Shown piece after piece: positions 2,277 to 58,903 of a stretch of DNA of 64,000 nt (positions are counted from its first letter, which is position 1; each line of letters begins with the position of its first letter). The stretch is from a virus. Taxonomy: Duplodnaviria; Heunggongvirae; Uroviricota; Caudoviricetes. The stretch lies in the IMG/VR virus record IMGVR_UViG_3300042471_001635; one strand, 5' to 3'. The translations under genes were made by a program, and so were the position numbers. The notes under the pieces were generated by a model. The model was given only the letters and a program-made list of their open reading frames with translations. It made no database searches and was not told the origin of the DNA.

Positions 2277-3203
2277 ATGGAAAGCCTAGCCAATGTGACC
2301 TCACTTTTCAAGTTTGATATTGTGGGTGATAAATATAAAATAACTTATCTCGGAAAGCCACCGATATATATAAATTTTTCGGTGAAACTGAAAGGTCTCA
2401 GTGTCCCTGTACAAACAATTAGGCACGAATATCAAACAAAAGGGGAATGGTTTATACCAAGTATTGATTATACGGGTTGTGCTATTTTGGAGGTAAGAAA
2501 CTATGAAACTAAGCAATACCTGTTCGATAAAGTTATAAACCCTGTGGTTAGTAAAAAAAGAAAAGAACAAAATATTATTTGTATTGGACTTAATAAGACA
2601 GGCACTAGTTCTTTCTCTGAATCCCTTCAAAAATTAGGATTTAGACTATCACCGGAAGGACTTAATTTTATGACTTGCGTTCAAGATGTACTTTTTGATG
2701 ATTTAAATTCTACATTTTCAATCTTGGAAAACGAGAGATATAATCTCTATGAAGACATGCCATATTCATTTCCATTACTTTACGAAAAAATTTACGAAAG
2801 AAGGCCTGAAGATGTTTTTGTTCTCACAGTAAGAAATGATGTCGAAACATGGATAAAATCTGTGATTAATTTTTATCCCTTACTCCAAAATAAAACAGAA
2901 AAAGAATGGGAAGACAAATCTTATATGAGATATGTGTGGAGTAATGAAAAAGACGATATTTTACTCAATAATCAATTTCCTTTATTAGATGCTTGGGGAA
3001 TAAAAGATACCACAAATTTGGAGTCAAAACTTAGGGAAATTTATAATACTCATAATCAAAGTGCCATAGAATTTTTTTCACGGAAAAAATCAAATTTCAT
3101 TGTAATCGATGTGTCAAAAAAGAACGAACTTAAAAGATTGTCTAATTGGTTGGGAATTGAAACAAATCAAAATGATTTTGATTGGGTAAACAAAAACAGT
3201 TAA
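2277..3203 (+). CDS. Sulfotransferase-family protein
   Basis: 308 aa; 5'-PSB-like P-loop IICIGLNKTGTSSF and 3'-PB-like LTVRNDVETWIKS (R-N-x-x-E/D...S) motifs of PAPS-dependent sulfotransferases. Confidence 0.5.
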   Translation: MESLANVTSLFKFDIVGDKYKITYLGKPPIYINFSVKLKGLSVPVQTIRHEYQTKGEWFIPSIDYTGCAILEVRNYETKQYLFDKVINPVVSKKRKEQNIICIGLNKTGTSSFSESLQKLGFRLSPEGLNFMTCVQDVLFDDLNSTFSILENERYNLYEDMPYSFPLLYEKIYERRPEDVFVLTVRNDVETWIKSVINFYPLLQNKTEKEWEDKSYMRYVWSNEKDDILLNNQFPLLDAWGIKDTTNLESKLREIYNTHNQSAIEFFSRKKSNFIVIDVSKKNELKRLSNWLGIETNQNDFDWVNKNS

Positions 3204-3379
3204 TTCTTGGAAATTTTCTTTTTTTCTTTTCCATTATAAAGTCTAAGAAGCTTCAAGGAATCTTTATAATGCTTTTCCAACCTATCCAATTCTTCGATAG
3301 GAGTGTTTGTTTCACAAGCCGAATTATATTGTTCTTCAGCTTCTTGTATTATCTTCTTTATTGTTTTGAGAAGTTTCAT
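3200..3379 (-). CDS. Small hypothetical coiled-coil protein (59 aa, below ORF-track cutoff)
   Basis: Minus-strand ORF MKLLKTIKKIIQEAEEQYNSACETNTPIEELDRLEKHYKDSLKLLRLYNGKEKKKISKN in the 3204-3489 gap. Confidence 0.25.
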   Translation of the reverse strand: MKLLKTIKKIIQEAEEQYNSACETNTPIEELDRLEKHYKDSLKLLRLYNGKEKKKISKN

Positions 3380-3489
3380 ATCCTATAAATATTGTCAATT
3401 CCTTCCTTTATTTAACAAGTTAAGAAATTATATTTTGAAGTGTATAAAAACATCGGAACGGGTTATTTATAAGGTAAGAGTAATTTTAA

Positions 3490-6400
3490 ATGGCAGGTTA
3501 TTATAATTTTTCAGGAACAAGTTGTACCGATGGACTAGACTATGAATTGTGGACCTTTTATCCACCAGGAGTAACAATTAGTATAGGTTCTGTTTTAAGC
3601 GGGGTTACGACTTTGGATTATTATACAGTAATTTCTACACCTGTAATTACTCTATCACAACCAGGTTTTGAAGTAGATGGAAACGTAGATTATGGAAGTT
3701 GTCCAGCAACTCCTACACCTACCGAAACACCCACAAATACTCCAACTCCGAGCGTAACCGAAAGTGAAACTCCAACTCAAACACCTACTCAAACTCCAAC
3801 TCCCACAACATATTGTCTTTGTAATTATTTCGACATGACTATAAGTCAAGCCGATTTGGATGCTGCCATTGGTAACATCACTTTCTTGAATAACACGGTT
3901 TATGTTCAATATCTTGATTGTTATGGAAATTTTCAAATAACAACATACTCATCTGCAGGTAGTTTCCCAAATACTTTCTGTGCAAGATATGTTCAAGCAA
4001 CATATTATTATGTGAGTGATACACCTGTTGTAGCTGGTACTTCATTCCCTACTGACACATTTAATGATTGTTGTCCGACACCAACACCAACTGAAACATC
4101 TACTCAGACCCCTACTGAAACACCATCCAATACTCCCACAGAAACCCCAACTCAGACACCTTCACAAACAACTAGCCAAACTCCAACTCAGACTGAAACG
4201 GCAACTCAAACTCCAACTGAGACGCCCACTCAAACCGCAACGCCATCTGCAACAGAAACGCCAACCCAAACTCCAACGGAAACTCCTACACAAACAGAGA
4301 CAGCAACACAAACTCCGACGGAAACTCCTACACAAACAGAAACACCTACACAAACCCCGACACCTGATAGTTCACCAACTCCAACACAAACTGAAACTCC
4401 GACAGAGACTCCTACTGAAACCCCAACTCAGACTGCAAGTGAAACACCTACTGAAACTCCAACGCAAACCGAGACGCCTACACAAACTCCAACGCCTAAT
4501 AGTACCCTAACACCTACTGCCACGGAGACTCCTACAGAAACTCCAACAGCGACCGAAACTCCAACGCAGACACCAAGTGATACGCCAACTCAAACTCCCA
4601 CTGAAACACCAACAGAAACTCCTACACAAACAGCTTCAGAAACTCCTACACAAACAGCCTCAGAAACTCCTACACAAACAGCTTCAGAAACTCCTACACA
4701 AACAGCTTCAGAAACTCCAACTGAGACGCCGACTCAAACTGCTACACCATCTACAACTCCAACGTTTGGGTTAACACCTACCTCAACAGAGACACAAACC
4801 CCTACTCAAACAGAGACCCCAACTCAGACCCCATCAAACACTTCTACTGAAACGCCAACACAAACAGAAACCCCAACAGAGACACCTACTGAAACTCCAA
4901 CTCAAACTGCGAGTGAAACACCAACTGAGACCCCAACTCAAACAGAAACGGCCACACAAACTCCGACACCTGATAGTACCCAAACACCGACTGCGACGGA
5001 GACTCCTACAGAAACTCCAACGGCGACCGAAACTCCTACACAAACCTCAACTCCAACACAAACACCTGGATTGACACCTACACAAACTACAACTCCAACT
5101 TTAACACCTGAGTTAGTCATTCAATTTGAGGAATGTGATTCAAACTTTGTATTTCGTTTTGCAGGTAGTCCGATGGCTTATCTCCCCGTTGATTCGGTTT
5201 ATTTGATTGAGGGTAGTTTGGATTTTTCGGGCTGTGCTACGGTTGTGGCATATACTTCAGAAGGTCCACTTTATAATTCTGCTGGAGTTACATTTACTGA
5301 AATTGATTACTGTGGTAATACGACTTACTGTCCAAGAACTGATAGAAAGGCTGCACAACTTGCAAGATGTAGGGATGGTCTGTTGAGTTATTTCATGGTG
5401 GATGTAGACACTGCATTCCAATATGGTGTTTATTTCTATCAAGGAGATTGTTGGAAATTTGTAAGATTTGATGGACCTGGTGGTCCATACCTTGGTTCAC
5501 CAAGTTATTTCAGCTGCGAAGATACTGTATGTATACCAACACCAACACCAACTGTAACGCCAAGAGAAACACCAACACAAACTCCAACACCATCCCCAAC
5601 TCCAACTGCTTGTCCTTATTCAACTTTTTGTTTTAGAACAACTCAACCTGACCTTGAGGACTTCAGTGGAAATTATACTGAGTATGGCTACGTATATAAT
5701 GATGAACTAACTTATTCAGGAGATGGAATTAACATTGGAGTAATTTATTATTTCACATCTTCAACTGAGAGTTATTGGTGTTTAAGCACTTCTTTGGGTG
5801 GTTCATGTGTACTTAGAGGTTCATCACCTTGTAATTCGAACTGTCCTGACATCAGTGGAAACTTCTTCACTTCAGGTGTTTGTCCTACACCTACACCTTC
5901 ACCATCTGCCTGCACAATTGACTTTGTTGCATATTTTGATTGTGATTGGGAACCTGTCCCGACGCCGACCTTGACTGTCACAGATGTTGATTTTGATGTA
6001 ACAAGCATTGGACTAACTCCAACACCAACCTCTACAAATCCATGTTTAGGTAAGGCTGTGGAATTCCAATTATATGAGTCTACACCTACACCAACACCAT
6101 CAAACACCGCAACACCAACTAGCTCAAGAGTTTATGAACCAGTTGGAGGTAAAGTGTCGTTCGAAATCTTTGATTCACCAATCTCTTGTCCTGAAGTGGC
6201 TATTCTCAAAGAATGCACTCAAGGAACAGATTTCTACTTCTGCGCACAAAATCAATTGGTATTCAACGGTCTTGTTGTGGAACCTGGTACAATAATGAAT
6301 GCAATTATCAACGGACAGTATGTTTGCGTTGAATATATTGGTAATCGTTCTAACACTTCATCAAATTCTGTAATCACCTCTATTATCAACCTTTATTCAG

Positions 6401-7365
6401 ATTGTCAGAGCTGTGTTGTTTTTCCAACACCAACAGTTACTCTCACTCCTACTCAAACTCAAACGCCATCTAATACTGCAACACCAACTCAAACCGCGAC
6501 AGTAACACCAACTACTACAACAACAAGAACACCAGATTTGACCCCTGACCCAACAACATCAATAACACCGACAAATACGGCTTCAAACACTCCTACACCG
6601 TCTTATACTCAAACACCAACCCCAACCAATTTGCAAAAGTATTATGTGTTTACCCTCTGTCCTAATCAAGAAAGTACAATAAGATTTAATAGATTGTTCC
6701 AAACTTCACCACTCACGGTTCCAATCCTTCCAACCAAAGTATTCACCGATGACAATGGTTTGTGCTGGACATATGAAGGATTCACAACAGCAATTGTTCC
6801 AAATCCAAATTATGTTGACTTGATTTGGCAAGACAATTATTTCGGTACCGCGGGAGAATTGCAATCGGATACTTGTGACGAGTGCCTCACAACATCTACA
6901 AAAATAAATCTTCAACTTCAAGTTTTCCCAAGCTTTGAGGGATATATCCCAAGTGGGGCAACAACAACATTTGATAGTCCAAACTTTGGCGTCTCTTTCT
7001 ATGATGGAATTGACCCGAATAATGGAACATTATTTTATCCACCATCTGATGTGTTGAACGACGGTGTAATTGTATTTAATTTGATTACCTTAATTGGTTC
7101 AGACCCTTATTCAATTTCTAAGTTAGCGGTGGGAGTAATTCACGGAAGATTTTTCTCAAAGGCAAATGTTATTGTTAAAGCATATATTAATGGAGTTTTA
7201 GCAAGCCAAGTAACACAACTTATTGAAGGAAATAGTGAAAACTTCGGAATTCAAATTGGAGGTTTGTTTGAAGAAATAAACTGTGTATCGAACCCGTGTT
7301 TGAGAGAATTAAATAGAGGAGACATATTACTTATAACAGTAGAACAAAATTCAGAAATAGGATAA
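3490..7365 (+). CDS. Giant Thr/Pro-rich (PTQT/PTET repeat) mucin-like fibre/adhesin protein with Cys-rich globular modules
   Basis: 1291 aa ORF; long (T-P-T-Q/E-T)n linkers alternating with Cys-containing domains; other-frame and antisense ORFs inside it are repeat artefacts. Confidence 0.8.
4615..4712 (+). repeat. Tandem 24-nt repeat (~4 copies; encodes ETPTQTAS)
   Basis: gaaactcctacacaaacagcttca reiterated. Confidence 0.7.
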
Positions 7366-7581
7366 ATGGCACTTACAATAACCATATCATCAATAACTGG
7401 CACGTCACCTTACAATGTATATCTCTGTGAGGGAGATGGAACTGGATGTTTTTATATAAATCAGATTTCATCCACACCCTACACATTTGACATACCAGCA
7501 CCCTATGATACATCAACATCATATATGGTAAAAATAGTAGATGCTGTAGGTTGTATTATAACTTCCACTCAATCATTATGA
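7366..7581 (+). CDS. Small protein consisting of a single copy of the ~65-aa N-terminal domain of the downstream fibre protein
   Basis: 71 aa; ...YNVYLCEGDGTGCFYINQISSTPYTFDIPAPYD... paralogous to the N-terminus of the 7578 ORF (...NIYYCDSLSASCVFVSSVATFPFVFDVPAPYD...); start abuts the stop of the 3490 ORF. Confidence 0.5.
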   Translation: MALTITISSITGTSPYNVYLCEGDGTGCFYINQISSTPYTFDIPAPYDTSTSYMVKIVDAVGCIITSTQSL

Positions 7582-9131
7582 GCCAACAAGTAACCATAAC
7601 ATCAGTAACCGCAAACACACCAGTGAACATCTATTATTGTGATTCACTCAGTGCTTCCTGTGTTTTTGTTTCTAGTGTGGCTACATTCCCATTTGTATTT
7701 GACGTGCCAGCACCATACGACGAACAAAATTTTGTAATAAAAATTGAAGATACCTCAGGATTTGAAGATTATAAAACAATCGACATCACTCCTACCTCCA
7801 CAAGTCAACCCACCACAACTCCAACTAATACTCCGAGCCAAACTCCTACTCAGACACCAACGAATACACCCTCAAATACTACAACACCATCTCAAACGGG
7901 GACACCAACTCAAACACCTTCTACATCAATTGAGGTATATCCCCCAATTCAACCGAGTCCAAATGTTGTTCAACACCCTGTAGGACAGAGTGTTGTTTGT
8001 GAAGCGGCAAATGCGTGTGATGATACCTTGACAACTAGAGTTCTATACAATTATGAAGCAGATGCTTCGGTGCAACCTGTGATAGGTATTACAATTTATT
8101 CTGCTTATTTCAGTTCAGCTTTATACGACCCTTATAATGGCAACAACGAGTGGATTTTGATGAGTTGGATTAATGGAACCTATGCCGTACAGATTACACC
8201 ACAGGGAACAATCAAAAGTTTTGTTCTTTGTCAAGAAAATCCAACTCCTTCACCAACAAAAACGCCAACTACTACACCCACTAATACACCAACTCAAACT
8301 CAAACTCAGACACAAACACCAACGCAAACAGCAACACCTTCAACAACAGCAACGATAGGTCTAACCCCAACATCAACTGAAACACCAAGTCAAACCCCAA
8401 CCCAAACTCCATCTACAACAACAACACTAACTGCAACACCAACCCAAACACCATCTCAAACTCAAACGCAAACCCAAACTCCATCTACAACAACAACACT
8501 AACTGCAACACCAACCCAAACACCATCTCAAACTCAAACGCAAACCCAAACTCCTTCTAATACAGAAACACCGACACAAACTCCAACACCTTCAACTACT
8601 CCAATTTGTTGTAATTGCTTTGCATTGACAAACGAAGGAGACCCAACCAATACAAATACTACAAATTATACAGATTGTGATGGTAATCCACAATCTATTA
8701 TAAATAAAATACAATTTGCAACTGCAACTTACTTCTGTGCAGTTCCAGGGTCAATTACAACATCTGGAGGTTTGACCGTGCTCCAAGTTCCTGATGACCT
8801 ACTCACTTGTGGTGGTTCTTGTCAACCATGTCCAACTCCTACACAAACCCCATCACAAACGGAAACACAAACCCAAACACCAACACCTTCACCAACACCA
8901 AATACTGGTTGTTATTCTTTAACAAATGAAGGAGACCCCACAGAAACCAATCTGACCACTTACACAGATTGTGATGGAAATCCACAATCAATTGTAAATA
9001 AAGCGTTCGAGTCAGGAGCAACTTACTTCTGTGCTCTTCCTGGTACAATCACATTTTCATCAGGTTTGACAGTAATAATGGTTGATGATAATTTAGGAAC
9101 ATGTGGATATAGTTGTGGAGGTTGTACATAA
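7578..9131 (+). CDS. Thr/Pro-rich repeat fibre protein with two paralogous Cys-rich C-terminal modules
   Basis: ORF track starts at a TTG (7551); the ATG at 7578 overlaps the upstream stop (ATGA); PTQT linkers; duplicated CxxCxALTNEGDPT...YTDCDGNPQSI modules. Confidence 0.75.
   Translation: MSQQVTITSVTANTPVNIYYCDSLSASCVFVSSVATFPFVFDVPAPYDEQNFVIKIEDTSGFEDYKTIDITPTSTSQPTTTPTNTPSQTPTQTPTNTPSNTTTPSQTGTPTQTPSTSIEVYPPIQPSPNVVQHPVGQSVVCEAANACDDTLTTRVLYNYEADASVQPVIGITIYSAYFSSALYDPYNGNNEWILMSWINGTYAVQITPQGTIKSFVLCQENPTPSPTKTPTTTPTNTPTQTQTQTQTPTQTATPSTTATIGLTPTSTETPSQTPTQTPSTTTTLTATPTQTPSQTQTQTQTPSTTTTLTATPTQTPSQTQTQTQTPSNTETPTQTPTPSTTPICCNCFALTNEGDPTNTNTTNYTDCDGNPQSIINKIQFATATYFCAVPGSITTSGGLTVLQVPDDLLTCGGSCQPCPTPTQTPSQTETQTQTPTPSPTPNTGCYSLTNEGDPTETNLTTYTDCDGNPQSIVNKAFESGATYFCALPGTITFSSGLTVIMVDDNLGTCGYSCGGCT
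8400..8545 (+). repeat. Tandem 72-nt repeat (2 copies) inside a PT-linker
   Basis: Encodes [24 protein letters not shown] twice. Confidence 0.6.
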
Positions 9132-9163
9132 AAATCTGAAAAATATACTTATAGAATATATAA

Positions 9164-11362
9164 ATGTCTTGTAATTGTTACCATATCGAAATCCCACAAT
9201 CCGTACAAACCAACGGTGTTAATGAAATATATCTTTGGCAAAAACTTTGTAACTTATACTATATTGCTGGAGTTTGGAACGGCTCTCTTTTGACTTATAT
9301 GGATGGAACTACCGCGGTTTATGACCTGTGTTTGGACAACGAATATGGTATTGAATTTAGTTATGGGTTTAGTGGACCCAAATTCACAACATCTGAGGTT
9401 CCTGAAATTACAGTAAATATTTTGGGTACTTGTACGGTAATTGGAGATTGTTATACACCACCAACACCCACTCAAACACAAACCCAAACTCAAACGCCAT
9501 CGCCGACTCTTACATTAACAGCATCTCCAACCCAAACACCAAGCCAAACTCAGACACCATCACAAACCGGCACACCACCACCAACACCTACTCAAACACA
9601 AACCCAAACTCAAACACCTTCACCCACAAAAGTTGTCTGTGGCATAGGAGTAACATCTCAAAGTTTTTATTATTATGATTGTTGTGGAAATCTGATATCA
9701 TCTACTGGTGCAGGTCAAGAAGTGTCTTTTGATTACACTAAACCTTACCAAGGAGTTACAAAATTGAACCTCTCTACTTCCTCAGTTTGTCCAACTCCAA
9801 CGCAGACTCAGACACCGAGCCAAACTCCAAGTCAAACCCAAACTCCAACACAAACACCATCTCAAACTCAAACGCAAACCCAAACGCCAACATCCACCCC
9901 TGTACCTACGTGTTCTGCTCAACCAAATTTAGCCAACGAGTGTGAAGTTTTCACTCTATTCGATATGGGAGTTCAATGTAACTTGATTAAAGAGCCAACT
10001 GTCGGAAGATTTGATGGTATATTATCAGTTAATGTGACAGGTGGAACAGCACCTTATACTTTCTATTGGAATACTGGTGAAAGGACTCAAACCATTTCTA
10101 ACATACCTTATGGAAGGTACACAGTTCTTGTTGTGGATTATTATGGAGATTATTCCGCCACAACTGCGTGTAATATATTGGCTCCAACACCAACAGCTAC
10201 TACCACACCAACAATCACACCCACACCGTCAACAACACCACCTAACGCTCCACCGTTGTGTTTAAGATTTGTTTCACCTCCGAGTTTTGGAGGGTCTGGT
10301 GGCTCTGCTATGTATAAGGAATTACCTCTGACTTTCGTGACCTCTGGAAACCAAAACGGGAAACCAACGTGGTATAATTATTCAAAAAATCTTTCGATTA
10401 TTTGGAATGACTCAGTAACTCCTAACAGATGGGATATAACAAATTGGCCTTACGGAGGAACACCTATTTCAACAAACCAAGGAACAATACCAGATACAGG
10501 ATGGCAGTTCTTGGGTACACCGGGTGTTTATTCCCAAATTGTTTCATCAAGGGGTCAATGTCCTTCGGTTTCTCCATTAGTTTTTGAATATCAAATAACA
10601 CCAGCTTCTTGTCCAGGAGTTTGTAACGGAAGTTTGGTGGTTGTGCCAGGAGGAGGAATGACACCATTCAGCTACTCGGTTGATGGCGTTAATTTCCAAA
10701 GTTCAAATATTTTCAACAACTTGTGTCCTTCTACTTTCGGTCTTACAATAAAAGATGCTGTAAATCAAACTTATAGTCAATCCATAACAATTGGTTCAGG
10801 AACAGCAACTACTTTGCAATTGAAACCTGAAATCATTACAAGTAATGGACCTGTCGCAAGTGGACCAAGTGTACAGACAGTAACATGGAAAATAACTTCT
10901 AATCCACCAATACCTGCTGGTGTTTCTTTAACAGGTCAAATCTTGTTCGAAATTTCACAAACAGAACAAGGTCCGACTAGCAGTTCAGGTCCAGCGACAA
11001 CTTATTTAATCAATGCATCTAACGTTGCAATTCAAAATAATTCTACATTAACTTTGTTGACATCTCCTATCATAACTCAAAGTGTCCCGAGTACTTGTAA
11101 TTCAGCTCTTGTTTCAGCTTCGAATGAAAATTACTCACAATCAACTCTTGTTACTTTAGGAAATGGATTTATTTTGACAGGTACAACTGTTTCATCATTG
11201 AATATTACGGGTGGAATTACTCAATTTAACTGTTCAACTACAGCTAAACAAACAATTTCGTTGACCCTTTCAAATTTCAAAGTTTTAGGAAATCCGTGTT
11301 ACACGGTACAAACACAGAATTTGGTATTGGTCAATAATCATACTTACACAATTTCAAGTTAG
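9164..11362 (+). CDS. Thr/Pro-rich fibre/adhesin protein with SprB-like repeat domains
   Basis: 732 aa; GGTAPYTFYWNTGERTQTISNIPYGRYTVLVVDYYGDYSATTAC and CNGSLVVVPGGGMTPFSYSVDG match the SprB-repeat pattern of Flavobacterium gliding adhesins; PTQTQT linkers. Confidence 0.8.
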   Translation: MSCNCYHIEIPQSVQTNGVNEIYLWQKLCNLYYIAGVWNGSLLTYMDGTTAVYDLCLDNEYGIEFSYGFSGPKFTTSEVPEITVNILGTCTVIGDCYTPPTPTQTQTQTQTPSPTLTLTASPTQTPSQTQTPSQTGTPPPTPTQTQTQTQTPSPTKVVCGIGVTSQSFYYYDCCGNLISSTGAGQEVSFDYTKPYQGVTKLNLSTSSVCPTPTQTQTPSQTPSQTQTPTQTPSQTQTQTQTPTSTPVPTCSAQPNLANECEVFTLFDMGVQCNLIKEPTVGRFDGILSVNVTGGTAPYTFYWNTGERTQTISNIPYGRYTVLVVDYYGDYSATTACNILAPTPTATTTPTITPTPSTTPPNAPPLCLRFVSPPSFGGSGGSAMYKELPLTFVTSGNQNGKPTWYNYSKNLSIIWNDSVTPNRWDITNWPYGGTPISTNQGTIPDTGWQFLGTPGVYSQIVSSRGQCPSVSPLVFEYQITPASCPGVCNGSLVVVPGGGMTPFSYSVDGVNFQSSNIFNNLCPSTFGLTIKDAVNQTYSQSITIGSGTATTLQLKPEIITSNGPVASGPSVQTVTWKITSNPPIPAGVSLTGQILFEISQTEQGPTSSSGPATTYLINASNVAIQNNSTLTLLTSPIITQSVPSTCNSALVSASNENYSQSTLVTLGNGFILTGTTVSSLNITGGITQFNCSTTAKQTISLTLSNFKVLGNPCYTVQTQNLVLVNNHTYTISS

Positions 11363-11400
11363 ACTATAAAATGAAATCTAAAAAACTATATTTATAAGGG

Positions 11401-13650
11401 ATGGGTTACGTAATTAAAAATACATCTGGTTTAATTAACACAAGATTGACTGACGTTGGAAGAAGACAAATCTCCCAAGGAAGTTTCAATATTTCTTATT
11501 TTCAAATTGGAGATAGTGAAGTTTGTTACACCGCAGCTACGAATTACAATCAGGTTAACAACAACATCTTAATGCCTTCTTTTGATGCTCAAAATAACAC
11601 AGGTTATCCAGAAGCAAACAAAGAGAATATCAAATACCCATATTATGTTTCAGGTGGACAGGGTGGTACATTTGGAATACCATTCATGGCTAGTGATTAC
11701 CAATTGGTTTACAACAGTGCCGGTTTAAAAGGATTTTTCAACACGGGCTCAACCACACCTTGGGTTGCTCAGATAAGTACAGCTTACACAATAACCTCCA
11801 ATTATGTTGTAGATATGTCTACATGTTCAGGTCAGACTTCAATTTCAATTGAACTTGACCCTACTATTTGTGCGACCACAACAGGAACACCTTCAATAGG
11901 TGATTTTATAACAATTTTCTTTGACGGAGTGGGTAGTTGTCAAGATGTTAACAATGTGCCAATATTGACTTACAAGATTATCAATTTATCACCGTCAGTT
12001 GGAACTACAAGTCAGAGCCCTTGGGTTGTTACATTAGATAGAGAGGTCCCTAATTATACTGCACTTACATCAGGAAGTTATGCGAGAACACTAATTTACC
12101 CTTCGGGTATGACTGTTCTTTATGATTTTATTACACCAGCACCTTATTGGCAAACTGATACCTTGAATTTTGAATCTCCGTGTGATGTGACTAATAGAGA
12201 AAATACTTTGATTTGGAATATGAATATTCCTTGGTCAGAGAGTCCAGCGGGAGTGTTTTCAAACACGGTACAGGGGTATCAATATTACGATTCAATTTCT
12301 TATTTAGGTTCAAAAGAATATTTGGGATATTCAACACAATCAGGTCAAACATTTGAAATTTCCACCACAAGAGCAAACGAACTAACTGACACATATTATT
12401 ATAATTCCTATGGTGAAGAGGTTAAAGTATACCCAAATCAACAGAAAGCCATTGCAATAATCCATTACACAAATCAAGATATTGATTTTGTCTATGGTGA
12501 AAAGTTTGCTACAGTTCCTTTTGACCCACAAAACCCAACAGACGATACAGGACTTGCTCGTCATTTCAAACTTTATATTCCAACATTGATGTGGCATAAA
12601 TCGACAGGAGCTACAATCGGTCAGACTTTCATGATTGACCCACCGAATTATGATTTGTGTAAACCACATTATATGAAGTCTACCAAAAACCTGAGAATGA
12701 ATGAACCAGGTATGAGGTATTTCCAACTTTGGGATTTAAATCCAGATGCTAATAATAATTTGAACAGGGTAGGTAAAGTTTTCCCTGACCAACAAATTAT
12801 TGTAATCGATGATGAAGAGATTGTTGCTGCGTTATCTAACAAGTCTAATAGAAATTGGACCCTTACAGCCCCAAAAGTAAGTGCAGTTGTTCCAAATGTT
12901 TGTAGTACAAATAATAATCTTCCTTTGTTTACACAGGCCTCAGATACAATTTGGCTGTCATATAGATTAGACTCAAATTCAAGTGGTTTTACAAATTCAT
13001 TACATTGTAACTACTACTCCAAGGTAAATGCGCCAAGTAACACTACGGCAACAAATTGTTATAATTTGGCTGTTCAATTTGGAAACGAATTTCCCTATTT
13101 GAACTCAAATTGGAGTTCTACTAACGTCACAGGTTTTAGTGCAAACTCAATCAAATTATTGGTTCAGAAAGTAAGTGGAGATACAAAACCTTCACAAACT
13201 GAATGGAGAGAAATCGACGTTACTTCAGATATTTCAAGTACGTTGTTGAACGGATACTTAACCGTAAGTGGAATAACAGGAAACACTTTCCAAATAGACG
13301 GTACAACTTTTGACAATGCGGCTCCTAACACCTACAACCTTTCCAATTATATCGATATTCCCTTACTTGGTGCAACAGGACCAACTTTAAACTTTGGTGG
13401 TGAGTATTATTTTTACGGGAGTTTGGAAACTGATATTGCGGCAACTATCTACGAAATGAAATATCTTGTGAATTTGGGTAGAAACCAATTTACAAATACT
13501 TCGAACCCTACATGGATGTCAGGGACAACATCTTATGTCACCGAAATTGGTCTTTACGATTCAAATTATAATCTTATAGTTATATCTAAACTACAATCTC
13601 CTGAGAAAAGACAAGGTGTTCAGCAGTATGTAGTTAAATTAGATTTCTAA
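11401..13650 (+). CDS. Large hypothetical structural protein (possible tail-fibre/baseplate component)
   Basis: 749 aa, Ser/Thr/Asn-rich, beta-rich composition, sits between fibre genes. Confidence 0.65.
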   Translation: MGYVIKNTSGLINTRLTDVGRRQISQGSFNISYFQIGDSEVCYTAATNYNQVNNNILMPSFDAQNNTGYPEANKENIKYPYYVSGGQGGTFGIPFMASDYQLVYNSAGLKGFFNTGSTTPWVAQISTAYTITSNYVVDMSTCSGQTSISIELDPTICATTTGTPSIGDFITIFFDGVGSCQDVNNVPILTYKIINLSPSVGTTSQSPWVVTLDREVPNYTALTSGSYARTLIYPSGMTVLYDFITPAPYWQTDTLNFESPCDVTNRENTLIWNMNIPWSESPAGVFSNTVQGYQYYDSISYLGSKEYLGYSTQSGQTFEISTTRANELTDTYYYNSYGEEVKVYPNQQKAIAIIHYTNQDIDFVYGEKFATVPFDPQNPTDDTGLARHFKLYIPTLMWHKSTGATIGQTFMIDPPNYDLCKPHYMKSTKNLRMNEPGMRYFQLWDLNPDANNNLNRVGKVFPDQQIIVIDDEEIVAALSNKSNRNWTLTAPKVSAVVPNVCSTNNNLPLFTQASDTIWLSYRLDSNSSGFTNSLHCNYYSKVNAPSNTTATNCYNLAVQFGNEFPYLNSNWSSTNVTGFSANSIKLLVQKVSGDTKPSQTEWREIDVTSDISSTLLNGYLTVSGITGNTFQIDGTTFDNAAPNTYNLSNYIDIPLLGATGPTLNFGGEYYFYGSLETDIAATIYEMKYLVNLGRNQFTNTSNPTWMSGTTSYVTEIGLYDSNYNLIVISKLQSPEKRQGVQQYVVKLDF

Positions 13651-13652
13651 TT

Positions 13653-14255
13653 ATGGGACGTAAACAAATCAAAGAGGATTCACCGAAGGTCCTCGGTCTA
13701 GATATTTCCACAAAAACAATCGGATGGGCACTTTTCGATATCGGGACAAAAAATTTATTGGAACTCACCCATGTTTCTCCAAGACCGAAAGATGTTGAAA
13801 ATAAAATTGAGGAATTAATTCTCAAAGCAATTATTTTTAGAAACAAGTTGGAACAATACGTTGGACTTGGAATACAAAAGGTTGTAATCGAAGAACCGTT
13901 ACTTAACTCAAATAACATTTGGACCGTAAGCACACTTATGAGATATAATACTCTGATTTGCAAAGAAGTGTATGATGTTTTGGGTATAGTTCCTGAATTT
14001 ATTTCAACTTATAACTCAAGAAAATTTGCATTCCCGCACTTGGTTCAAAAAAATGAAAAAGGAAAGTTTGTATTATTTGGCGGTTTTTCAAAAGACATAG
14101 ACAAAAAAGTTGTAATTTGGGAACTTGTTGCAAAAAGGGAACCACAAATAACTTGGCAATACACCAAAAATAATACCCTGAAAAAAGAAAATTACGACCA
14201 AACAGATGCCTATTGTGCAGTCTTAGGATACATGAAATCACAAGACCTTTGGTAA
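13653..14255 (+). CDS. RuvC-like Holliday-junction resolvase
   Basis: 200 aa; N-terminal VLGLDISTKTIGWALFD (RuvC first-Asp motif) and C-terminal DAYCAVLGY. Confidence 0.5.
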   Translation: MGRKQIKEDSPKVLGLDISTKTIGWALFDIGTKNLLELTHVSPRPKDVENKIEELILKAIIFRNKLEQYVGLGIQKVVIEEPLLNSNNIWTVSTLMRYNTLICKEVYDVLGIVPEFISTYNSRKFAFPHLVQKNEKGKFVLFGGFSKDIDKKVVIWELVAKREPQITWQYTKNNTLKKENYDQTDAYCAVLGYMKSQDLW

Positions 14256-14262
14256 AATTTTT

Positions 14263-14293: not shown

Positions 14294-14297
14294 TAAT

Positions 14298-14687: not shown

Positions 14688-14688
14688 T

Positions 14689-15788: not shown

Positions 15789-15791
15789 TAC

Positions 15792-53153: not shown

Positions 53154-53157
53154 TTTT

Positions 53158-53847: not shown

Positions 53848-53951
53848 GAAATTGGAGTGGATATTCGATTATTATTTCGTTTGGATGTTATATAACGGAA
53901 ATAAAACACACAAGTACATAGAGTACATGGAGAAAAAGTGGGGAAATAAAA

Positions 53952-54182
53952 ATGATTGACAATACAGAATGGGTCAATGGACCCTCTCACTACGGAGGAA
54001 AAGAAAACCCATACGAAGTAATTAAAGTTTGTGAAGCTTGGGAGCTCGATAAAGACGCTTATTTATTCAACGTGGTCAAATATGTTGCTCGAGCAGGAAA
54101 GAAAGACGTCTCTAAAGAAATTGAAGACCTTAAGAAAGCGGCTTTTTATTTAGATAGAAAAATTAAAAATTTAGAAAAATGA
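53952..54182 (+). CDS. DUF3310-like phage protein
   Basis: 76 aa; PSHYGGKENPYEVIKVCEAWELDKDAYLFNVVKYVARAGKKD fits the recalled DUF3310 pattern (P.HY...P..vi.....NaiKY..Rag.K). Confidence 0.45.
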   Translation: MIDNTEWVNGPSHYGGKENPYEVIKVCEAWELDKDAYLFNVVKYVARAGKKDVSKEIEDLKKAAFYLDRKIKNLEK

Positions 54183-54631
54183 TTATTTGGTTAACAGGTC
54201 AACCCGGTGCGGGTAAAACAACAATTTGTAAAAAAATTTTACTTAGAGACGCTAGTATTTTCCACATCGATGGAGATGACCTCAGAGATTTATTTGAGAA
54301 CAAAGACTACTCCGAACAAGGTAGAAGAAAAAACATTGAGTTAGCCCAACAAATTGCTCAGTATCTCACTAACAAGGGTGAAGATGTATTAGTATCTTTG
54401 GTTTCCCCCTACAAAGACCAAAGAAATAAATTCAAAGAAAAGATGGGGGATAAATTGGTAGAGGTTTATGTTCATACTTCTGAAAAAAGAGGGAGAGAAG
54501 ATTTCTTCGTAAAAGAATATGGACAACCCACCGAAAATTACCTTGACATTGATACAACAAATGAAAGTGTTGAGGAGTCAGCTCAAAAAGTATTAGAATA
54601 TGCGAAGAATAAACCAAACACAACCAAATAA
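54179..54631 (+). CDS. Adenylylsulfate (APS) kinase-like P-loop kinase
   Basis: 150 aa; IIWLTGQPGAGKTT plus IDGDDLRD...EQGRRKNIE...VLVSLVSPYKDQRNK...VEVYVHT parallels CysC FTGLSGSGKST / LDGDNVRHGL...DRKENIRR...VLTAFISPHRAER...IEVFVDT. Confidence 0.6.
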   Translation: MIIWLTGQPGAGKTTICKKILLRDASIFHIDGDDLRDLFENKDYSEQGRRKNIELAQQIAQYLTNKGEDVLVSLVSPYKDQRNKFKEKMGDKLVEVYVHTSEKRGREDFFVKEYGQPTENYLDIDTTNESVEESAQKVLEYAKNKPNTTK

Positions 54632-54667
54632 AAATGTTCTTTTTGGTTAATCCTCATATTTATTAAT

Positions 54668-55210
54668 ATGAAAGCAATTGATTTAAAAGGACAAAAATTT
54701 GGTAAACTGTTGGTTAAAGAGTTTGCGGGACATAAAAACAACTTAAGACAATGGTTATGTGTCTGTGAGTGTGGAAATGAAAAAATTGTTAGAGGGGGAC
54801 ATTTAACTAAAGGGTTTACAAAAACCTGCGGTTGTGAAGCTCACCCAACACAATTTAACCATAAATCTTGGAAAGGTTATGGAGAGATTCCCTTAGATTT
54901 TTTTACTACCATTAAGAAAAACGCAGAACGTAGAAACATTGAATTTTATATTACAATTGAATATCTTTGGGAAATCTTCGTAAAACAAAATAAAAAATGT
55001 GCATTATCTGGTAGAGACTTAAAATTTGGGAGAATTGTAAAAGATAGAAAGGGTAAAAATGTTTCTGTTGATAGAATTGATTCTTCTAAAGGTTATGTAA
55101 ACGGAAATATCCAATGGATAGATAAACAAATAAACATTATGAAGAATAATTTGGATGAAAATGAATTCTTACAGCTTTGTAATGATATTGTAAACTATAA
55201 AAAAATATGA
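54668..55210 (+). CDS. HNH endonuclease-family protein
   Basis: 180 aa; Cys cluster CVCECGN...CGC; HNH-like VSVDRIDSSKGYVNGNIQWIDKQINIMK. Confidence 0.5.
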   Translation: MKAIDLKGQKFGKLLVKEFAGHKNNLRQWLCVCECGNEKIVRGGHLTKGFTKTCGCEAHPTQFNHKSWKGYGEIPLDFFTTIKKNAERRNIEFYITIEYLWEIFVKQNKKCALSGRDLKFGRIVKDRKGKNVSVDRIDSSKGYVNGNIQWIDKQINIMKNNLDENEFLQLCNDIVNYKKI

Positions 55211-55608
55211 AAAAAATTCACGTTGAGGGAGACCCAAAATTAAAAAACACAGGAGGAAAACAGTATTCAATGGTAGTCGGACGATTTCAACCTTTTCACG
55301 ATGGACACAAATGGTTGGTTAATCAATGTTTAGAGGATGGTAAAAATGTTCTGATTTGTATTAGAGACATCCAACCAGATGAAAAAAATCCATTTTCACC
55401 TGAAGACGTTCAAAGAAATATCATGAACGAACTTTGGAAACTTATAGGAGAAGAAAAAGTTAAGGTCATGATTATACCCGATATTGAGTCAGTGAATTTC
55501 GGAAGAGGTGTTGGATATGATATCATTGAGCATGTACCACCTCAAGAAGTTCATGATATTTCTGCAACAAAAATCCGTGAACAAATGAGACAGGAGGGAA
55601 AGTTATGA
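55207..55608 (+). CDS. Minimal nucleotidyltransferase of the NMNAT/PPAT (HxGH) family
   Basis: 133 aa; VVGRFQPFHDGH (H-x-G-H) and C-terminal ISATKIRE (ISSTxIR motif). Confidence 0.6.
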   Translation: MKKIHVEGDPKLKNTGGKQYSMVVGRFQPFHDGHKWLVNQCLEDGKNVLICIRDIQPDEKNPFSPEDVQRNIMNELWKLIGEEKVKVMIIPDIESVNFGRGVGYDIIEHVPPQEVHDISATKIREQMRQEGKL

Positions 55609-55838: not shown

Positions 55839-55905
55839 AAAATATTTTCAATTTACTGGACTTAGTGGAAAAAAATCATTAAAATTGAATTATTAAACTG
55901 TTATA

Positions 55906-56769
55906 ATGGAAAATTTTTTAGGTAATATAATAAATGGTGACTGTATAGTAGAGATGGCTAAAATGCCTGAAAACTCAATCGATTTAATTGTCACTTCCCC
56001 ACCATACGGAGTCGGGATTGAATATGACTCATTCGATGATGATATGAACATAGAAGACTACAAAGAGTTTTCGAAGAAATGGCTCACTGAGGCTTATAGA
56101 CTTCTGAAGGCGGATGGTAGAATTGCTCTCAATGTTCCTTATGAAATCAACCGACAGGATAAAGGAGGAAGAGTTTTTATTGCCTCTGAACTTTGGCAGA
56201 TTATGCAAAGAATTGGTTACAAATTTTATGGTATTGTGGATTTGGATGAAGATTCTCCACACAGAAGTAAGACCACGGCTTGGGGTTCATGGATGTCTCC
56301 TTCTGCACCTTACATCTACAATCCGAAAGAGTGTGTTATCTTGGCTTACAAATCTAAACATATTAAGATTGTTAAAGGTGAACCCGAGTGGGTTGGCGTG
56401 ATTGATGAGATTGAACAAGAGGATGGAACAAAAAAGAAAAAAACTCTTTATACTGAAGAACAGAAGAAAGAATTTATGGATTTGGTTTATGGACAGTGGA
56501 CGTATTTTGCAGACACAAAACAAATGACCAAAGCAACCTTTTCTTTGGATATCCCAATGAAAGCTATGAAGATACTCACATATAAAAATGACGTCGTCTT
56601 GGACCCTTTCTGTGGGTCTGGTACAACTCCAGTTGCTGCAGTGATATCAGGAAGAAATTGGGTGGGTATTGAACTCAGTCCGAACTATTGTGAAATAGCC
56701 CGTCAAAGAGTTAAACAATTCGTGGATAAAAAGAAACAAACTAAATTAGATTTCGAAGAAGGGGTTTAA
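55906..56769 (+). CDS. DNA methyltransferase (beta-class N4-cytosine/N6-adenine, SPPY motif)
   Basis: Motif IV DLIVTSPPYG near the N-terminus, motif I VLDPFCGSGTT near the C-terminus. Confidence 0.75.
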   Translation: MENFLGNIINGDCIVEMAKMPENSIDLIVTSPPYGVGIEYDSFDDDMNIEDYKEFSKKWLTEAYRLLKADGRIALNVPYEINRQDKGGRVFIASELWQIMQRIGYKFYGIVDLDEDSPHRSKTTAWGSWMSPSAPYIYNPKECVILAYKSKHIKIVKGEPEWVGVIDEIEQEDGTKKKKTLYTEEQKKEFMDLVYGQWTYFADTKQMTKATFSLDIPMKAMKILTYKNDVVLDPFCGSGTTPVAAVISGRNWVGIELSPNYCEIARQRVKQFVDKKKQTKLDFEEGV

Positions 56770-56790
56770 AAACCCCTTTTTTTATTTTTT
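56758..56790 (+). terminator. Intrinsic terminator
   Basis: ggggtttaaaaacccc followed by ttttttt a tttttt. Confidence 0.6.
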
Positions 56791-56814
56791 GGATATTTAT
56801 AGGAAATTATTCCT

Positions 56815-57186
56815 ATGAAAGAAGAACTCATAAAAAAACTCGTTCAAATTCAACTTCAATTTAAATTTTTACATTGGCAAACTTTTGGAGATGCTAAACA
56901 TAGACTTTATGGAGAAATCTATGATAAGTTGGGAGACTTTATTGATGAGTTCACTGAAACAATGATGGGAAAATACGGAAGACCAGAGTTTGACTCTGAA
57001 TTTGGAATTATGTTTCAAGATATTTCGGCATTGAGTATGCAGAATTTTATAGATGGAATTACTGAATTTTTTGTTGGGATGTCAGACCAACTCGACTCAA
57101 GATATGATACAGACTTACTCAACATTAGAGATGAGATGTTGGGTCTCATAAATAAATCTAAGTACTTATTAACACTCAAATACTAA
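56815..57186 (+). CDS. Hypothetical protein
   Basis: 123 aa. Confidence 0.45.
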   Translation: MKEELIKKLVQIQLQFKFLHWQTFGDAKHRLYGEIYDKLGDFIDEFTETMMGKYGRPEFDSEFGIMFQDISALSMQNFIDGITEFFVGMSDQLDSRYDTDLLNIRDEMLGLINKSKYLLTLKY

Positions 57187-57482
57187 TGGCACAGAAAATT
57201 GTAAGACTAAGCGAAGGTGACTTAATTAATCTTGTAAAAAGGGTTATCACCGAACAAAAAAAATTCGAACTATTCATGAATCCTGGTCAAACAGCTGAAG
57301 CAGAATTGATTGGAGACATATTGACTATTTTTTCTCAGATGGGGAAAGACCAAATCTTTAAAGTAAAAACATCTTTACCGAAAGGAAAATTTATGTTTGA
57401 ATATTCGAAAGATGGAAAATATTACGGATACGATAAGAGAGGAAAAAAACATGAAATCCTTTTGATAGAAAAAAGAAAATGA
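57186..57482 (+). CDS. Hypothetical protein
   Basis: 98 aa. Confidence 0.4.
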   Translation: MAQKIVRLSEGDLINLVKRVITEQKKFELFMNPGQTAEAELIGDILTIFSQMGKDQIFKVKTSLPKGKFMFEYSKDGKYYGYDKRGKKHEILLIEKRK

Positions 57483-58903
57483 AAAAACTATTAAAAGAGT
57501 CTGGTTTAAGAGATATTTCGGCTTTGAGGAAAAGATACCCTAAAGCCGAAATTTATTTTCACCTTGACCTTGATGGTGTGACCACCGCAATTGCAATGAA
57601 AAAATACCTTGAGGACAATGGAATCAAGGTGGTTGGAGCACACACCATTCAATATGGGGACAAAGAATTTGCTGTTAAAAAGTTGGATGCTGAAGGTGAT
57701 ACAATGCCGGTACTTGTAGATTTCGCTCATGGTAAACCCATGTTCGTTATTCATACTGACCACCACGACAGACAGGTAGGAGCTGAACCCGAGGCCTCTA
57801 AATCATTCAGACAAGCCCGTTCCAACGTAGAGACAATATCTCAAATAGTTTCTCCTAAAGAAATATTTCCAACCGCAGATATCCTCCTAATAAGCACCGT
57901 TGACTCGGCTAACTTTTTGAAACATGAAATTACACCCGAGGACGTTGTGAATTATATTTTCAGATTGGATAAAGATAAGACCCTTCAGAAAAATAAAATG
58001 TTACTTGGGTTGGTTATCAACAAACTGATTTTAGCTTTCAAAAACCGAAAAGGTTTTATGGAGAGTTTGGTTATGGATTCAGAACCTTCCCTTATGTCCA
58101 TTTTCAATAACATTAAGAAATGGATGAAAATGACAAGTGCTGAGGACTTTGCTACCCTTCAACAAAGGTCCGATGATTACTTGGAACAAATGAAAAAATA
58201 TCCGAAGGTAAGAGTTGAAGACGGAATAATTTTTCAATACGGTGCAGGAAATATGAAGTCTGGTTCATATGATAGATACACTCCTTTTAGAGTGAATCCA
58301 AATGCAGACTTTCTTATTCTAATGTGGCCGATGGGACTTTTACAAGTCTCTTGTAACCCTTTTAAAAAAGACAGAAAGTTGAAAGGAGTTAATTTGGGAG
58401 AGATGGCTCAGGACGTTCTTAAACCTTTTGAAAGCCAACTCAAATCAAGAACAATCCCTCTTTCGACAATCAAATGGTTGAGTGAAATAAGTACAAAACC
58501 CGGTGATGTTGGATTTACATTCAAAGATTTCAATGCCCTTTTCGGTGGTAAAATTGCTTTCATTGATGGAGGTAACGAAATTTTAGATAGAATCAAACCG
58601 ATGATGGACAAACCTTTTTCCGAACTCAAGGAAGAAGAAAAACAACTTTTGGATAAAATTGGAATTAACATGTGGGATTTTATTCAATCAAATTCAGGGG
58701 GACACAAATGTATTACGAATATTTCAGGTCTAAATTTTCTTGGAAGAAAGACAAGACCATCAGAGGACCCATACAGATATGACCCAGATAAGCCAGATGT
58801 TCCATATATCAAATTCATGAGACAACTTGGAACAAAATTTTTCAATATATTGAAAGATAAAATTCAAGAGGAACAACAAAAAGAAAAAGAAGTATCGAAT
58901 TAA
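57479..58903 (+). CDS. DHH-DHHA1 family phosphoesterase (NrnA/RecJ-like)
   Basis: FHLDLDGVTTA (motif I), VIHTDHHD (DHH), C-terminal NSGGHKCI (DHHA1 GGGH-like). Confidence 0.6.
   Translation: MKKLLKESGLRDISALRKRYPKAEIYFHLDLDGVTTAIAMKKYLEDNGIKVVGAHTIQYGDKEFAVKKLDAEGDTMPVLVDFAHGKPMFVIHTDHHDRQVGAEPEASKSFRQARSNVETISQIVSPKEIFPTADILLISTVDSANFLKHEITPEDVVNYIFRLDKDKTLQKNKMLLGLVINKLILAFKNRKGFMESLVMDSEPSLMSIFNNIKKWMKMTSAEDFATLQQRSDDYLEQMKKYPKVRVEDGIIFQYGAGNMKSGSYDRYTPFRVNPNADFLILMWPMGLLQVSCNPFKKDRKLKGVNLGEMAQDVLKPFESQLKSRTIPLSTIKWLSEISTKPGDVGFTFKDFNALFGGKIAFIDGGNEILDRIKPMMDKPFSELKEEEKQLLDKIGINMWDFIQSNSGGHKCITNISGLNFLGRKTRPSEDPYRYDPDKPDVPYIKFMRQLGTKFFNILKDKIQEEQQKEKEVSN

Follow-up and report, generated by a model that had tools for sequence, protein, structure and literature searches.

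A putative sulfate-activating gene pair and a predicted sulfotransferase in a phage genome fragment

A stretch of 64,000 nucleotides from the IMG/VR virus record IMGVR_UViG_3300042471_001635 (Caudoviricetes), analysed here at its full length and called the window, carries three plus-strand genes predicted to make or use 3'-phosphoadenosine 5'-phosphosulfate (PAPS). These encode a PAPS-type sulfotransferase (2277-3203) near one end and, near the other, a short kinase of the adenosine 5'-phosphosulfate (APS) kinase family (54179-54631) and a small nucleotidyltransferase (55207-55608). A DHH-superfamily phosphoesterase-like protein of 474 aa is encoded further downstream (57479-58903, plus strand). 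An original prediction, made from the sequence, had joined the sulfotransferase, the kinase and the DHH protein into one phage sulfation module, with the DHH protein removing the by-product 3'-phosphoadenosine 5'-phosphate (pAp, also written PAP); every open reading frame (ORF) that it named was found where it had been placed. The window appears to be part of a large uncultured freshwater phage, since contigs as long as 321 kb from freshwater metagenomes and IMG/VR encode proteins 70-99% identical to its own; megablast with both window ends gave no match among the INPHARED phages. It has a GC content of about 33%, is coded almost entirely on the plus strand, and encodes a primase, Mre11/Rad50-like proteins, a sigma factor, an amidase, DnaJ, two DNA methyltransferases, a NUDIX protein and a Band_7 protein.

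The 2277-3203 product matches the Pfam family Sulfotransfer_4 (PF17784; E 7.6e-15, 55.8 bits against a cut-off of 22.8), with residues 100-307 aligned to positions 2-212 of the 215-position profile. The two PAPS-binding motifs originally noticed in this protein, the 5'-phosphosulfate-binding motif (5'-PSB, GLNKTGTSSF, residues 104-113) and the 3'-phosphate-binding motif (3'-PB, RNDVETWIKS, residues 186-195), are present and fall in invariant columns of an alignment of 26 homologues with identities down to 20% (invariant residues G104, N106, K107, G109, T110, L183, T184 and R186). Most of the aligned sequences also have a Ser or Thr eight residues after R186. The AlphaFold2 (AF2) model built on this alignment has a predicted local distance difference test score (pLDDT) of 92.7, and its ten best Foldseek matches in the PDB are all sulfotransferases (E 4e-7 to 9e-6, target template-modelling (TM) score at most 0.73), among them Schistosoma SULT-OR (E 4e-7), Cpz8 of caprazamycin biosynthesis with PAP, and SgdX2 (TM 0.73); further down the list come the heparan sulfate sulfotransferase 3-OST-3 and then TPST2. 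By profile, motifs and predicted fold this protein is a genuine PAPS-type sulfotransferase, and here the original prediction was borne out by both the profile search and the structure prediction. The phage enzyme shares its fold, PAPS-binding loops and catalytic-domain size with SULT-OR, Cpz8 and SgdX2, but is only 15-20% identical to them, has a glycan- or protein-modifying genomic setting, and adds an N-terminal beta-sandwich of about 99 residues (residues 1-99) that resembles the Ig-like domains of glycoside hydrolases. Solved members of the Sulfotransfer_4 family act on small molecules and sugar hydroxyls.

This family is rare, with 48 homologues, all carrying PF17784. Related T4-like or large phages carry them in variable regions, next to genes for surface proteins of the type IX secretion system (T9SS) type, GT2 glycosyltransferases, UDP-galactopyranose mutase and the like, and these neighbours point to Bacteroidota hosts and to glycan chemistry. 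A tblastn search of phages with the sulfotransferase gave no match, a phmmer search of PDB sequences with the sulfotransferase and the DHH protein gave nothing meaningful, and PHROGs had no family for the sulfotransferase, for the neighbouring GT9 protein described below or for the DHH protein. Sulfotransfer_4 homologues with 28-51% identity over the catalytic domain were also seen on three giant-virus (NCLDV) contigs in IMG/VR (GVMAG contigs L012, L014 and L017).

The kinase, of 150 aa, is best matched by the Pfam family APS_kinase (70.4 bits against a cut-off of 21.1), followed by Zeta_toxin at 37 bits, and 19 of its 20 PDB sequence matches are APS kinases. It has the P-loop GQPGAGKT, the elements DGDDLR (DGDxxR), YSEQGRRKN ((F/Y)S..R..N) and SLVSP (SxxSP), and, in an alignment with canonical APS-kinase domains, the C-terminal Y-x-x-P...D-T segment. 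Residues G7, G12, K13, D33, R36, R49 and P77 are invariant between it and canonical APS kinases, and the catalytic and APS-binding residues D33, R36, F/Y44, S45 and R49 are conserved throughout the family, including canonical APS kinases that are fused to the nucleotidyltransferase. The canonical lid RDxKGLYKKAR.GE...FTG is reduced to a short (K/R)RGRE..F stretch. The Pfam alignment is limited to residues 2-103, and all NCBIfam APS-kinase models matched residues 1-100 only and stayed below their cut-offs. The motif-by-motif alignment with APS kinase originally proposed holds for the best Pfam family, the P-loop, DGDxxR (which aligns with that of canonical APS kinases) and SxxSP, and breaks down at the lid and at the NCBIfam equivalog cut-offs. 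Its sequence places the kinase in the APS-kinase family at the Pfam level, as a structurally reduced variant. Many of its homologues are more than 80% identical.

Downstream of the kinase lies a conserved partner that the original prediction had overlooked, a NadM-like HxGH nucleotidyltransferase of 133 aa with a Pfam CTP_transf_like match. It is extremely conserved, and the family motifs GR(F/W)QP(F/W)HxGH, NFGRGVGYD and ISATKIR appear in the window as GRFQPFHDGH, NFGRGVGYD and ISATKIR. Its PDB matches to nicotinamide mononucleotide (NMN) adenylyltransferases (NMNATs) reach E 1.4e-7, while all NCBIfam NMNAT models fall far below their cut-offs, and only residues 20-95, in the N-terminal part, align with NMNATs. 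With NadM-type NMNATs (the archaeal enzymes and the NadM-Nudix proteins of Francisella, Synechocystis and T4-like phages) it shares the N-terminal Rossmann half, GRFQPFHxGH, NPF(T/S) and the C-terminal ISxTxxR. It differs from them in being about 40-60 residues shorter (133 aa against 168-181 aa), a loss that affects the C-terminal half, in never being fused to Nudix within its family, and in being consistently partnered with an APS kinase in sulfur contexts. Such a shortened protein would suit a very small acceptor such as sulfate.

We compared 85 related loci, collected by tblastn and hidden Markov model (HMM) searches, and found a fixed block of genes for DUF3310, the kinase, the 133-aa nucleotidyltransferase, an N6/N4 DNA methyltransferase, DUF5856, a small ORF, the DHH-like protein and NUDIX. 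The nucleotidyltransferase follows the kinase directly in about 84 of the 85 loci, and in almost all its start lies within or right after the kinase stop codon. The window has an HNH-like ORF of the homing-endonuclease type between the two (54668-55210, plus strand; 180 aa, Cys-rich), which is present in just two other loci and therefore looks like a mobile insert outside the pathway; elsewhere the kinase and nucleotidyltransferase genes abut or overlap. Cys-rich domains like this ORF are fused to the N terminus of some nucleotidyltransferase homologues (P0348, P0368 and P0407), inserts of about 2.4 kb occur at the same junction in several of the sulfotransferase cassettes described next (L241 and L245, for example), and this junction seems to attract homing endonucleases.

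Another set of phages places the pair beside a sulfotransferase. One IMG/VR locus (L016), reached through the sulfotransferase alignment, has seven overlapping genes in the order unassigned 290-aa protein, Sulfotransfer_4, second unassigned protein, Sulfotransfer_3/1, short kinase, nucleotidyltransferase and DUF2061. Seeding a search with the kinase of this locus gave 29 loci, at least 21 of which have a Sulfotransfer_3 gene just upstream. Seeding independently with the Sulfotransfer_3 gene gave 67 phage loci in IMG/VR, the longest contig measuring 304 kb; the kinase is directly downstream in 65 of the 67, followed in most by the nucleotidyltransferase and DUF2061. The functional tie between kinase and sulfotransferase that had been proposed for the window is thus seen in phages. 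To the eye the 290-aa protein upstream of the cassette sulfotransferase resembles a GT9 glycosyltransferase, but it had no Pfam or PDB profile match and hhalign gave only 19% probability against the window's GT9 protein, and we assign it to no family. DUF2061 (L016 4072-4281; L185 7220-7486) is a small two-helix membrane protein that stands beside the pair in almost all cassette-bearing phages, is found in an operon of a SAR11 metagenome-assembled genome (MAG) and fused to the nucleotidyltransferase in one protein (P0359), and is absent from the clade of the window. Its role may be to hold the pair at the membrane or to couple it to sulfate uptake.

The pair also occurs in bacteria. Nucleotidyltransferase homologues 35-61% identical, with a short kinase immediately upstream, were found in SAR11, SAR86, Marinimicrobia, Acidobacteriota, Omnitrophota and Planctomycetota. 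Among the best 150 cluster representatives of the nucleotidyltransferase homologues, 38 are at least 200 aa long, and 30 of these 38 are fused to an APS-kinase domain, in both domain orders; some of the fused kinase domains are full-length canonical APS kinases (143-192 bits). An operon in a Pelagibacteraceae (SAR11) MAG (L185) consists of sirohydrochlorin ferrochelatase, uroporphyrin-III methyltransferase, sulfite reductase, PAPS reductase, DUF2061, a kinase of the short type and, as its last gene, the nucleotidyltransferase. In Omnitrophota a kinase-nucleotidyltransferase fusion follows two sulfotransferases, in Planctomycetota a fusion lies between two sulfatases and adjoins TauE, and in Marinimicrobia the pair is 2 kb from a Sulfotransfer_5 gene. 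Among SAR11, many single-cell genomes and isolates carry the pair (L128-L174, Pelagibacteraceae); in one of these (L144, 7570-8351) its neighbours are not sulfur genes. A recent preprint describes a SAR11 genus that has sulfotransferases in a hypervariable region and lacks assimilatory sulfate reduction, and the pair may be the PAPS source for these sulfotransferases.

Cultured phages carry the fusion too. By kinase and nucleotidyltransferase HMMs, both domains are present in gp32 of Xylella phage Salvo (annotated 'kinase'; NC_042345.1 15167-15913, L210 5581-6327), near MazG and a gene annotated as 'cysteine dioxygenase', and in AAY80_227 of Stenotrophomonas phage DLP_6 (annotated 'hypothetical'; KU682439.2 129043-129774). 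Adjacent tblastn matches to the kinase and the nucleotidyltransferase were obtained in phages Sano, Bacata, Seregon, AhaSv, Suzuki and others.

APS kinase receives its substrate from ATP sulfurylase, which is also a nucleotidyltransferase of the HxxH type, and in PAPS synthases the two are as a rule fused. Because the small nucleotidyltransferase stands in the ATP-sulfurylase position of fusions and operons, and has lost the part of NMNAT in which the large substrate NMN is bound, we infer that it adenylylates sulfate. It would then be an ATP sulfurylase by context that lies outside every ATP-sulfurylase family by sequence. In the pathway that we propose, the nucleotidyltransferase would convert ATP and sulfate to APS and pyrophosphate, and the kinase would phosphorylate the 3'-OH of APS to give PAPS, a step for which homology and context both speak. 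The overlapping or fused genes of relatives would allow direct hand-over of APS, pulling the unfavourable first reaction forward. The Sulfotransfer_4 enzyme, as its homology and fold suggest, would move sulfate from PAPS to a hydroxyl, most likely on a sugar that the GT9 glycosyltransferase encoded next to it sets and the neighbouring methyltransferase trims. The carriers would, more speculatively, most plausibly be three cytoplasmic Thr/Pro-rich proteins without signal peptides that are encoded next to it, or alternatively host envelope glycans, and the pAp formed would probably be cleared by host enzymes of the CysQ type. We therefore consider it reasonably probable (about 0.6) that the phage runs PAPS-dependent sulfation largely on its own genes, by way of a two-gene PAPS synthase. 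The most economical reading is that phages of this clade always make PAPS and that this one gained a cassette that decorates glycans or proteins with it.

Several observations weigh against this proposal. Within the phage clade the kinase and nucleotidyltransferase form a core pair and the sulfotransferase block an accessory cassette: in none of about 84 related kinase loci is there a sulfotransferase within 10 kb, so that most relatives clearly run the pair with no phage sulfotransferase, and the kinase family has more than 5400 homologues against 48 for the sulfotransferase family. In the window the sulfotransferase and kinase are 51 kb apart and hence form no operon. The three genes of the original prediction do not make up a single module, one being a rare accessory far from a block that belongs to the clade core. 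The cassette sulfotransferase elsewhere is Sulfotransfer_3, a family distinct from the Sulfotransfer_4 of the window; the fusion gene of Salvo has no sulfotransferase nearby; and an Acidobacteriota fusion (L127) is divergent from CysD- and CysN-like genes, so that an ATP sulfurylase is already there. As for the enzymes, the kinase has about 18 lid residues deleted relative to the canonical APS kinases of L127, L178 and L203 and scores 74.6 bits against an NCBIfam equivalog cut-off of 138.7 (TIGR00455/PRK models). The nucleotidyltransferase matches only CTP_transf_like and NadM-type NMNAT families and structures, with no ATP-sulfurylase match in Pfam, NCBIfam or PDB profile searches at E values up to 10. 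No observation places the Thr/Pro-rich proteins in the virion or marks them as glycosylated, and the support for every step comes from sequence, predicted fold and context.

A different account of the same genes would make the pair an auxiliary metabolic gene (AMG) set that boosts sulfate assimilation by the host, supplying PAPS for CysH and cysteine and methionine for virions, with the sulfotransferase independent of it, drawing on host PAPS and present by coincidence. The core position of the kinase block among DNA-metabolism genes, the lack of a sulfotransferase within 10 kb in the relatives and near the Salvo fusion, the rarity of the sulfotransferase family, and the SAR11 MAG operon, which ties the pair to PAPS reductase and not to a sulfotransferase, all fit such an account. 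So does the literature: in the passages on viral cysC of the preprint by Kieft et al. (10.1101/2021.01.05.425418) and of the COBRA paper (PMC10914622), the gene is treated as an AMG of assimilatory sulfate reduction, and short APS-kinase homologues are described in large freshwater and marine phages and reported as expressed in lakes. Yet the co-location in 65 of 67 loci of another phage clade shows the pair feeding the phages' own sulfotransferases, cysH was not found in the window, and any sulfotransferase in the cell could draw on PAPS made by the pair, which leaves assimilation compatible with sulfation. On balance we hold incidental co-presence to be unlikely, if still worth serious weight. 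A more distant option is that the nucleotidyltransferase is a true NMN adenylyltransferase and the pair acts on NAD-type nucleotides, for example in NAD+ salvage against NAD-depleting defence, the kinase then acting on a ribose hydroxyl of a product other than APS. The GRFQPFHxGH and ISxTxxR motifs, sequence matches that are all to NadM-type NMNATs, the N-terminal region shared with NadM-Nudix proteins of T4-like phages, and a NUDIX gene 3.6 kb downstream that is conserved in the block speak for it, as does one homologue that is joined to a DHH/DHHA1 domain and lacks a neighbouring kinase. Against this, all the informative contexts concern sulfur (sulfotransferases, PAPS reductase, sulfite reductase, sulfatases and TauE), canonical APS kinases of full length are among the fusion partners, the protein is short of 40-60 residues in the C-terminal half of NMNATs, and the window showed neither NAMPT nor any other gene of NAD salvage; we regard an NMNAT function as very improbable. 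Two further roles were considered for the kinase and rejected. That of a 5-hydroxymethyldeoxyuridine (5-hmdU) DNA kinase or polynucleotide kinase fails because APS kinase is a far better match and the informative contexts are those just listed, and HldE-like synthesis of ADP-heptose for the GT9 enzyme because the kinase belongs to the APS-kinase family and not to PfkB, and the pair is found fused to canonical APS kinases and near PAPS reductase.

The third enzyme of the original prediction, an NrnA-type DHH-DHHA1 pAp phosphatase that would complete the phage module, fared less well. The 57479-58903 protein does show the motifs DLD, VDF, DHH and VDS and an SGGH element by eye, and its gene, 1.9 kb beyond that of the nucleotidyltransferase on the downstream side, belongs to a block conserved in about 70 relatives; clade synteny, for its part, covers many unrelated core genes. 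Pfam DHH stayed below its cut-off (20.1 against 28.1 bits), DHHA1 gave no Pfam match, a PDB profile search gave nothing, and none of the many homologues listed has a precomputed Pfam domain. The AF2 model has a pLDDT of 63, with the N-terminal catalytic domain below 50, too uncertain for a reading of single residues; Foldseek with this low-confidence model returned only DHH-superfamily proteins (E about 5e-4 to 2e-3), the best being the NrnA-like pGpG phosphodiesterase PggH (TM 0.28/0.41) and archaeal RecJ/Cdc45 proteins (TM 0.36-0.41), the latter of the same length as the window protein. The DHH motifs I-IV and GGH are shared with NrnA, PggH, RecJ and archaeal RecJ/Cdc45-GAN, and the fold matches all in the superfamily. 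With its 474 aa and long middle insert the window protein is nearer to archaeal RecJ/Cdc45 than to NrnA (310-340 aa), no subfamily being assignable; its length and predicted fold suit archaeal RecJ/Cdc45 at least as well as NrnA, and PggH is resembled as much as NrnA. No homologue occurs near the sulfotransferase-kinase cassettes (67 and 29 loci) or in the 80 bacterial loci, the protein has no link to PAPS genes beyond the general synteny of its clade, and the GNAT and SET fusions of its relatives do not suggest nucleotide clean-up. These C-terminal extensions (GNAT acetyltransferase, SET or PF25218), which a DHH phosphoesterase does not usually have, are found in some of its close homologues (P0175, P0176, P0189, P0197, P0282 and P0286). 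A 31.7-kb contig possibly shared by sulfotransferase and DHH homologues could not be confirmed. The protein is more likely to be a nuclease or phosphodiesterase of RecJ/Cdc45 or PggH type with another role, and we think it quite improbable that it acts as the pAp phosphatase of the module. The idea of a pAp phosphatase is kept as a lead by one fusion (P0426, L212 4051-5349), on a phage-like contig with ThyX, SNase and NUMOD3 and with no kinase nearby, in which a nucleotidyltransferase homologue is joined to a DHH/DHHA1 domain of about 310 aa. This domain, with DHHH and GGGGH, shows weak similarity to both NrnA and the window protein; it is, however, a different, shorter DHH protein, and the fusion lends no support to the 57479-58903 protein; nor does it fit neatly with either an ATP sulfurylase or an NMNAT. 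The original prediction is thus supported in part: it holds for the sulfotransferase and the kinase and, in spirit, for a sulfation capacity of the phage, while its reading of the DHH enzyme is unsupported or wrong.

Known PAPS-forming systems offer a useful comparison. PAPSS1/2 of metazoans, the Sat-CysC proteins of fungi and bacteria, and CysN-CysC share with the pair an APS kinase coupled or fused, in either order, to an HxxH nucleotidyltransferase, and a location beside PAPS consumers (sulfotransferases, PAPS reductase). They differ from it in that the nucleotidyltransferase here has 113-133 aa, is NadM/NMNAT-like, and lacks a PUA domain or a match to an ATP-sulfurylase family; in that about 18 lid residues are gone from the kinase of phages, SAR11 and SAR86, whose activity is here predicted; and in that a small DUF2061 membrane protein often joins the pair. 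The viral cysC AMGs of the two papers cited above, as far as their cysC passages go, concern the same kind of gene, short APS-kinase homologues, whereas the strongest phage context seen here is sulfation and not assimilatory reduction; adjacent nucleotidyltransferases or sulfotransferase cassettes were not found mentioned in those passages (10.1101/2021.01.05.425418; PMC10914622). The role of phage sulfotransferases has been called unclear (PMC10580990), and we found no description of a small NadM-like ATP sulfurylase in the papers searched, which is not proof of novelty. Viral cysC and viral sulfotransferases are already known as separate AMGs. What appears to be new is the hard-wired kinase-nucleotidyltransferase(-DUF2061) module, its systematic coupling to phage sulfotransferases, and the hypothesis that SAR11 and other abundant bacteria possess the same minimal ATP sulfurylase.

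A broader proposal, which we put forward tentatively and at slightly less than even odds, is that the 113-133-aa nucleotidyltransferase represents a third, so far unrecognised class of ATP sulfurylase which, with the lid-less kinase and often DUF2061, forms a minimal PAPS synthase in phages and bacteria, and feeds phage sulfotransferases that produce sulfated glycans on virions or host surfaces. If so, its users would include jumbo freshwater phages and T4-like phages, cultured siphophages of Xylella, Xanthomonas and Stenotrophomonas (Salvo among them), and SAR11, SAR86 and Marinimicrobia, and it would explain where the SAR11 sulfotransferases of the hypervariable region obtain PAPS despite the reported lack of assimilatory sulfate reduction. 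Viral cysC genes are currently counted as helpers of sulfur assimilation; a kinase hard-wired to a nucleotidyltransferase, and in a whole clade to sulfotransferases, shifts the likely purpose from cysteine to PAPS for sulfation, with targets that are probably glycans on virions or on the infected cell surface. Should the nucleotidyltransferase be an ATP sulfurylase, it would be a new and very compact entry into sulfate activation, surveys of pathway completeness (in SAR11, for example) would need revisiting, and a two-domain PAPS synthase of 280 aa would be at hand for biotechnology. The cultured phages Salvo (gp32) and DLP_6 are tractable systems for PAPS synthesis.

The surroundings of the sulfotransferase gene bear on its possible targets. 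Divergent from it lies a gene on the minus strand (1270-2214) for a heptosyltransferase-like GT9 glycosyltransferase (Pfam Glyco_transf_9, E 7.3e-10, 39 bits against a cut-off of 22), with weak NCBIfam matches to heptosyltransferases I/II. It is followed on the same strand by a class I S-adenosylmethionine (SAM)-dependent methyltransferase (645-1262; Methyltransf_24, PF13578, E 6.2e-17), which has a weak match (E 0.016) to the rhamnosyl O-methyltransferase/CmcI family and is possibly a sugar O-methyltransferase. A partial ORF at the edge of the window (1-641, minus strand) with a DSD motif may hold a glycosyltransferase domain; it had no Pfam or NCBIfam matches, and homologous domains occur in proteins of about 1000 aa that adjoin the sulfotransferase-kinase cassette in two loci (L105 and L122). 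The methyltransferase and one glycosyltransferase expected beside the sulfotransferase are therefore confirmed by Pfam, and the second glycosyltransferase, that of the partial ORF, is not.

Downstream of the sulfotransferase, three plus-strand genes encode Thr/Pro-rich repeat proteins: one of 1291 aa (3490-7365; Thr 23%, Pro 12%, with ten-residue linkers and no Pfam match), one of 526 aa (7551-9131; Thr 24%, Pro 11%, with a sub-threshold match to DUF7060 as its sole Pfam match) and a Thr/Ser/Pro-rich one of 732 aa with SprB repeats (9164-11362; Thr 17%, Pfam SprB E 2.4e-8). Together they have 17-24% Thr, 9-12% Pro, repeats of the TPTQTPTE type and no signal peptide. Four such proteins had been described as fibres; three are strongly Thr/Pro-rich, unlike the fourth (11401-13650). 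No feature marks them as fibres, and the genuine fibre hallmarks of the window belong to three other, consecutive genes at 39334-47043, which encode collagen triple-helix-repeat proteins of 819-895 aa with C-terminal Peptidase_S74 (intramolecular chaperone) domains. In phage virion glycosylation, such as that by mycobacteriophage capsid and tail glycosyltransferases, cytoplasmic glycosyltransferases are encoded beside structural or repeat proteins without signal peptides, as they are here; we know of no reported case that involves sulfate. The three Thr/Pro-rich neighbours are plausible candidates for glycosylation and sulfation. The SprB repeats, together with T9SS C-terminal domains encoded in the neighbouring genes of relatives, are hints of Bacteroidota hosts.

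The Thr/Pro-rich proteins also hold many Cys-rich globular modules. Across their genes (3490-11362) the local GC content is 38-44% and the GC skew is -0.2 to -0.3, the strongly negative skew being due to ACN and CCN codons. A scan of positions 1-14000 for sigma-70 promoters and terminators gave the same result as shuffled sequence. The collagen/Peptidase_S74 genes have a GC content of 43-55%, compared with about 33% elsewhere, and are followed by three conserved minus-strand genes (47062-49692). Beyond the DHH gene, about 1.3 kb (59682-61030) has no long ORF and contains the window's only tRNA, tRNA-Met(CAT), at 60061-60137.

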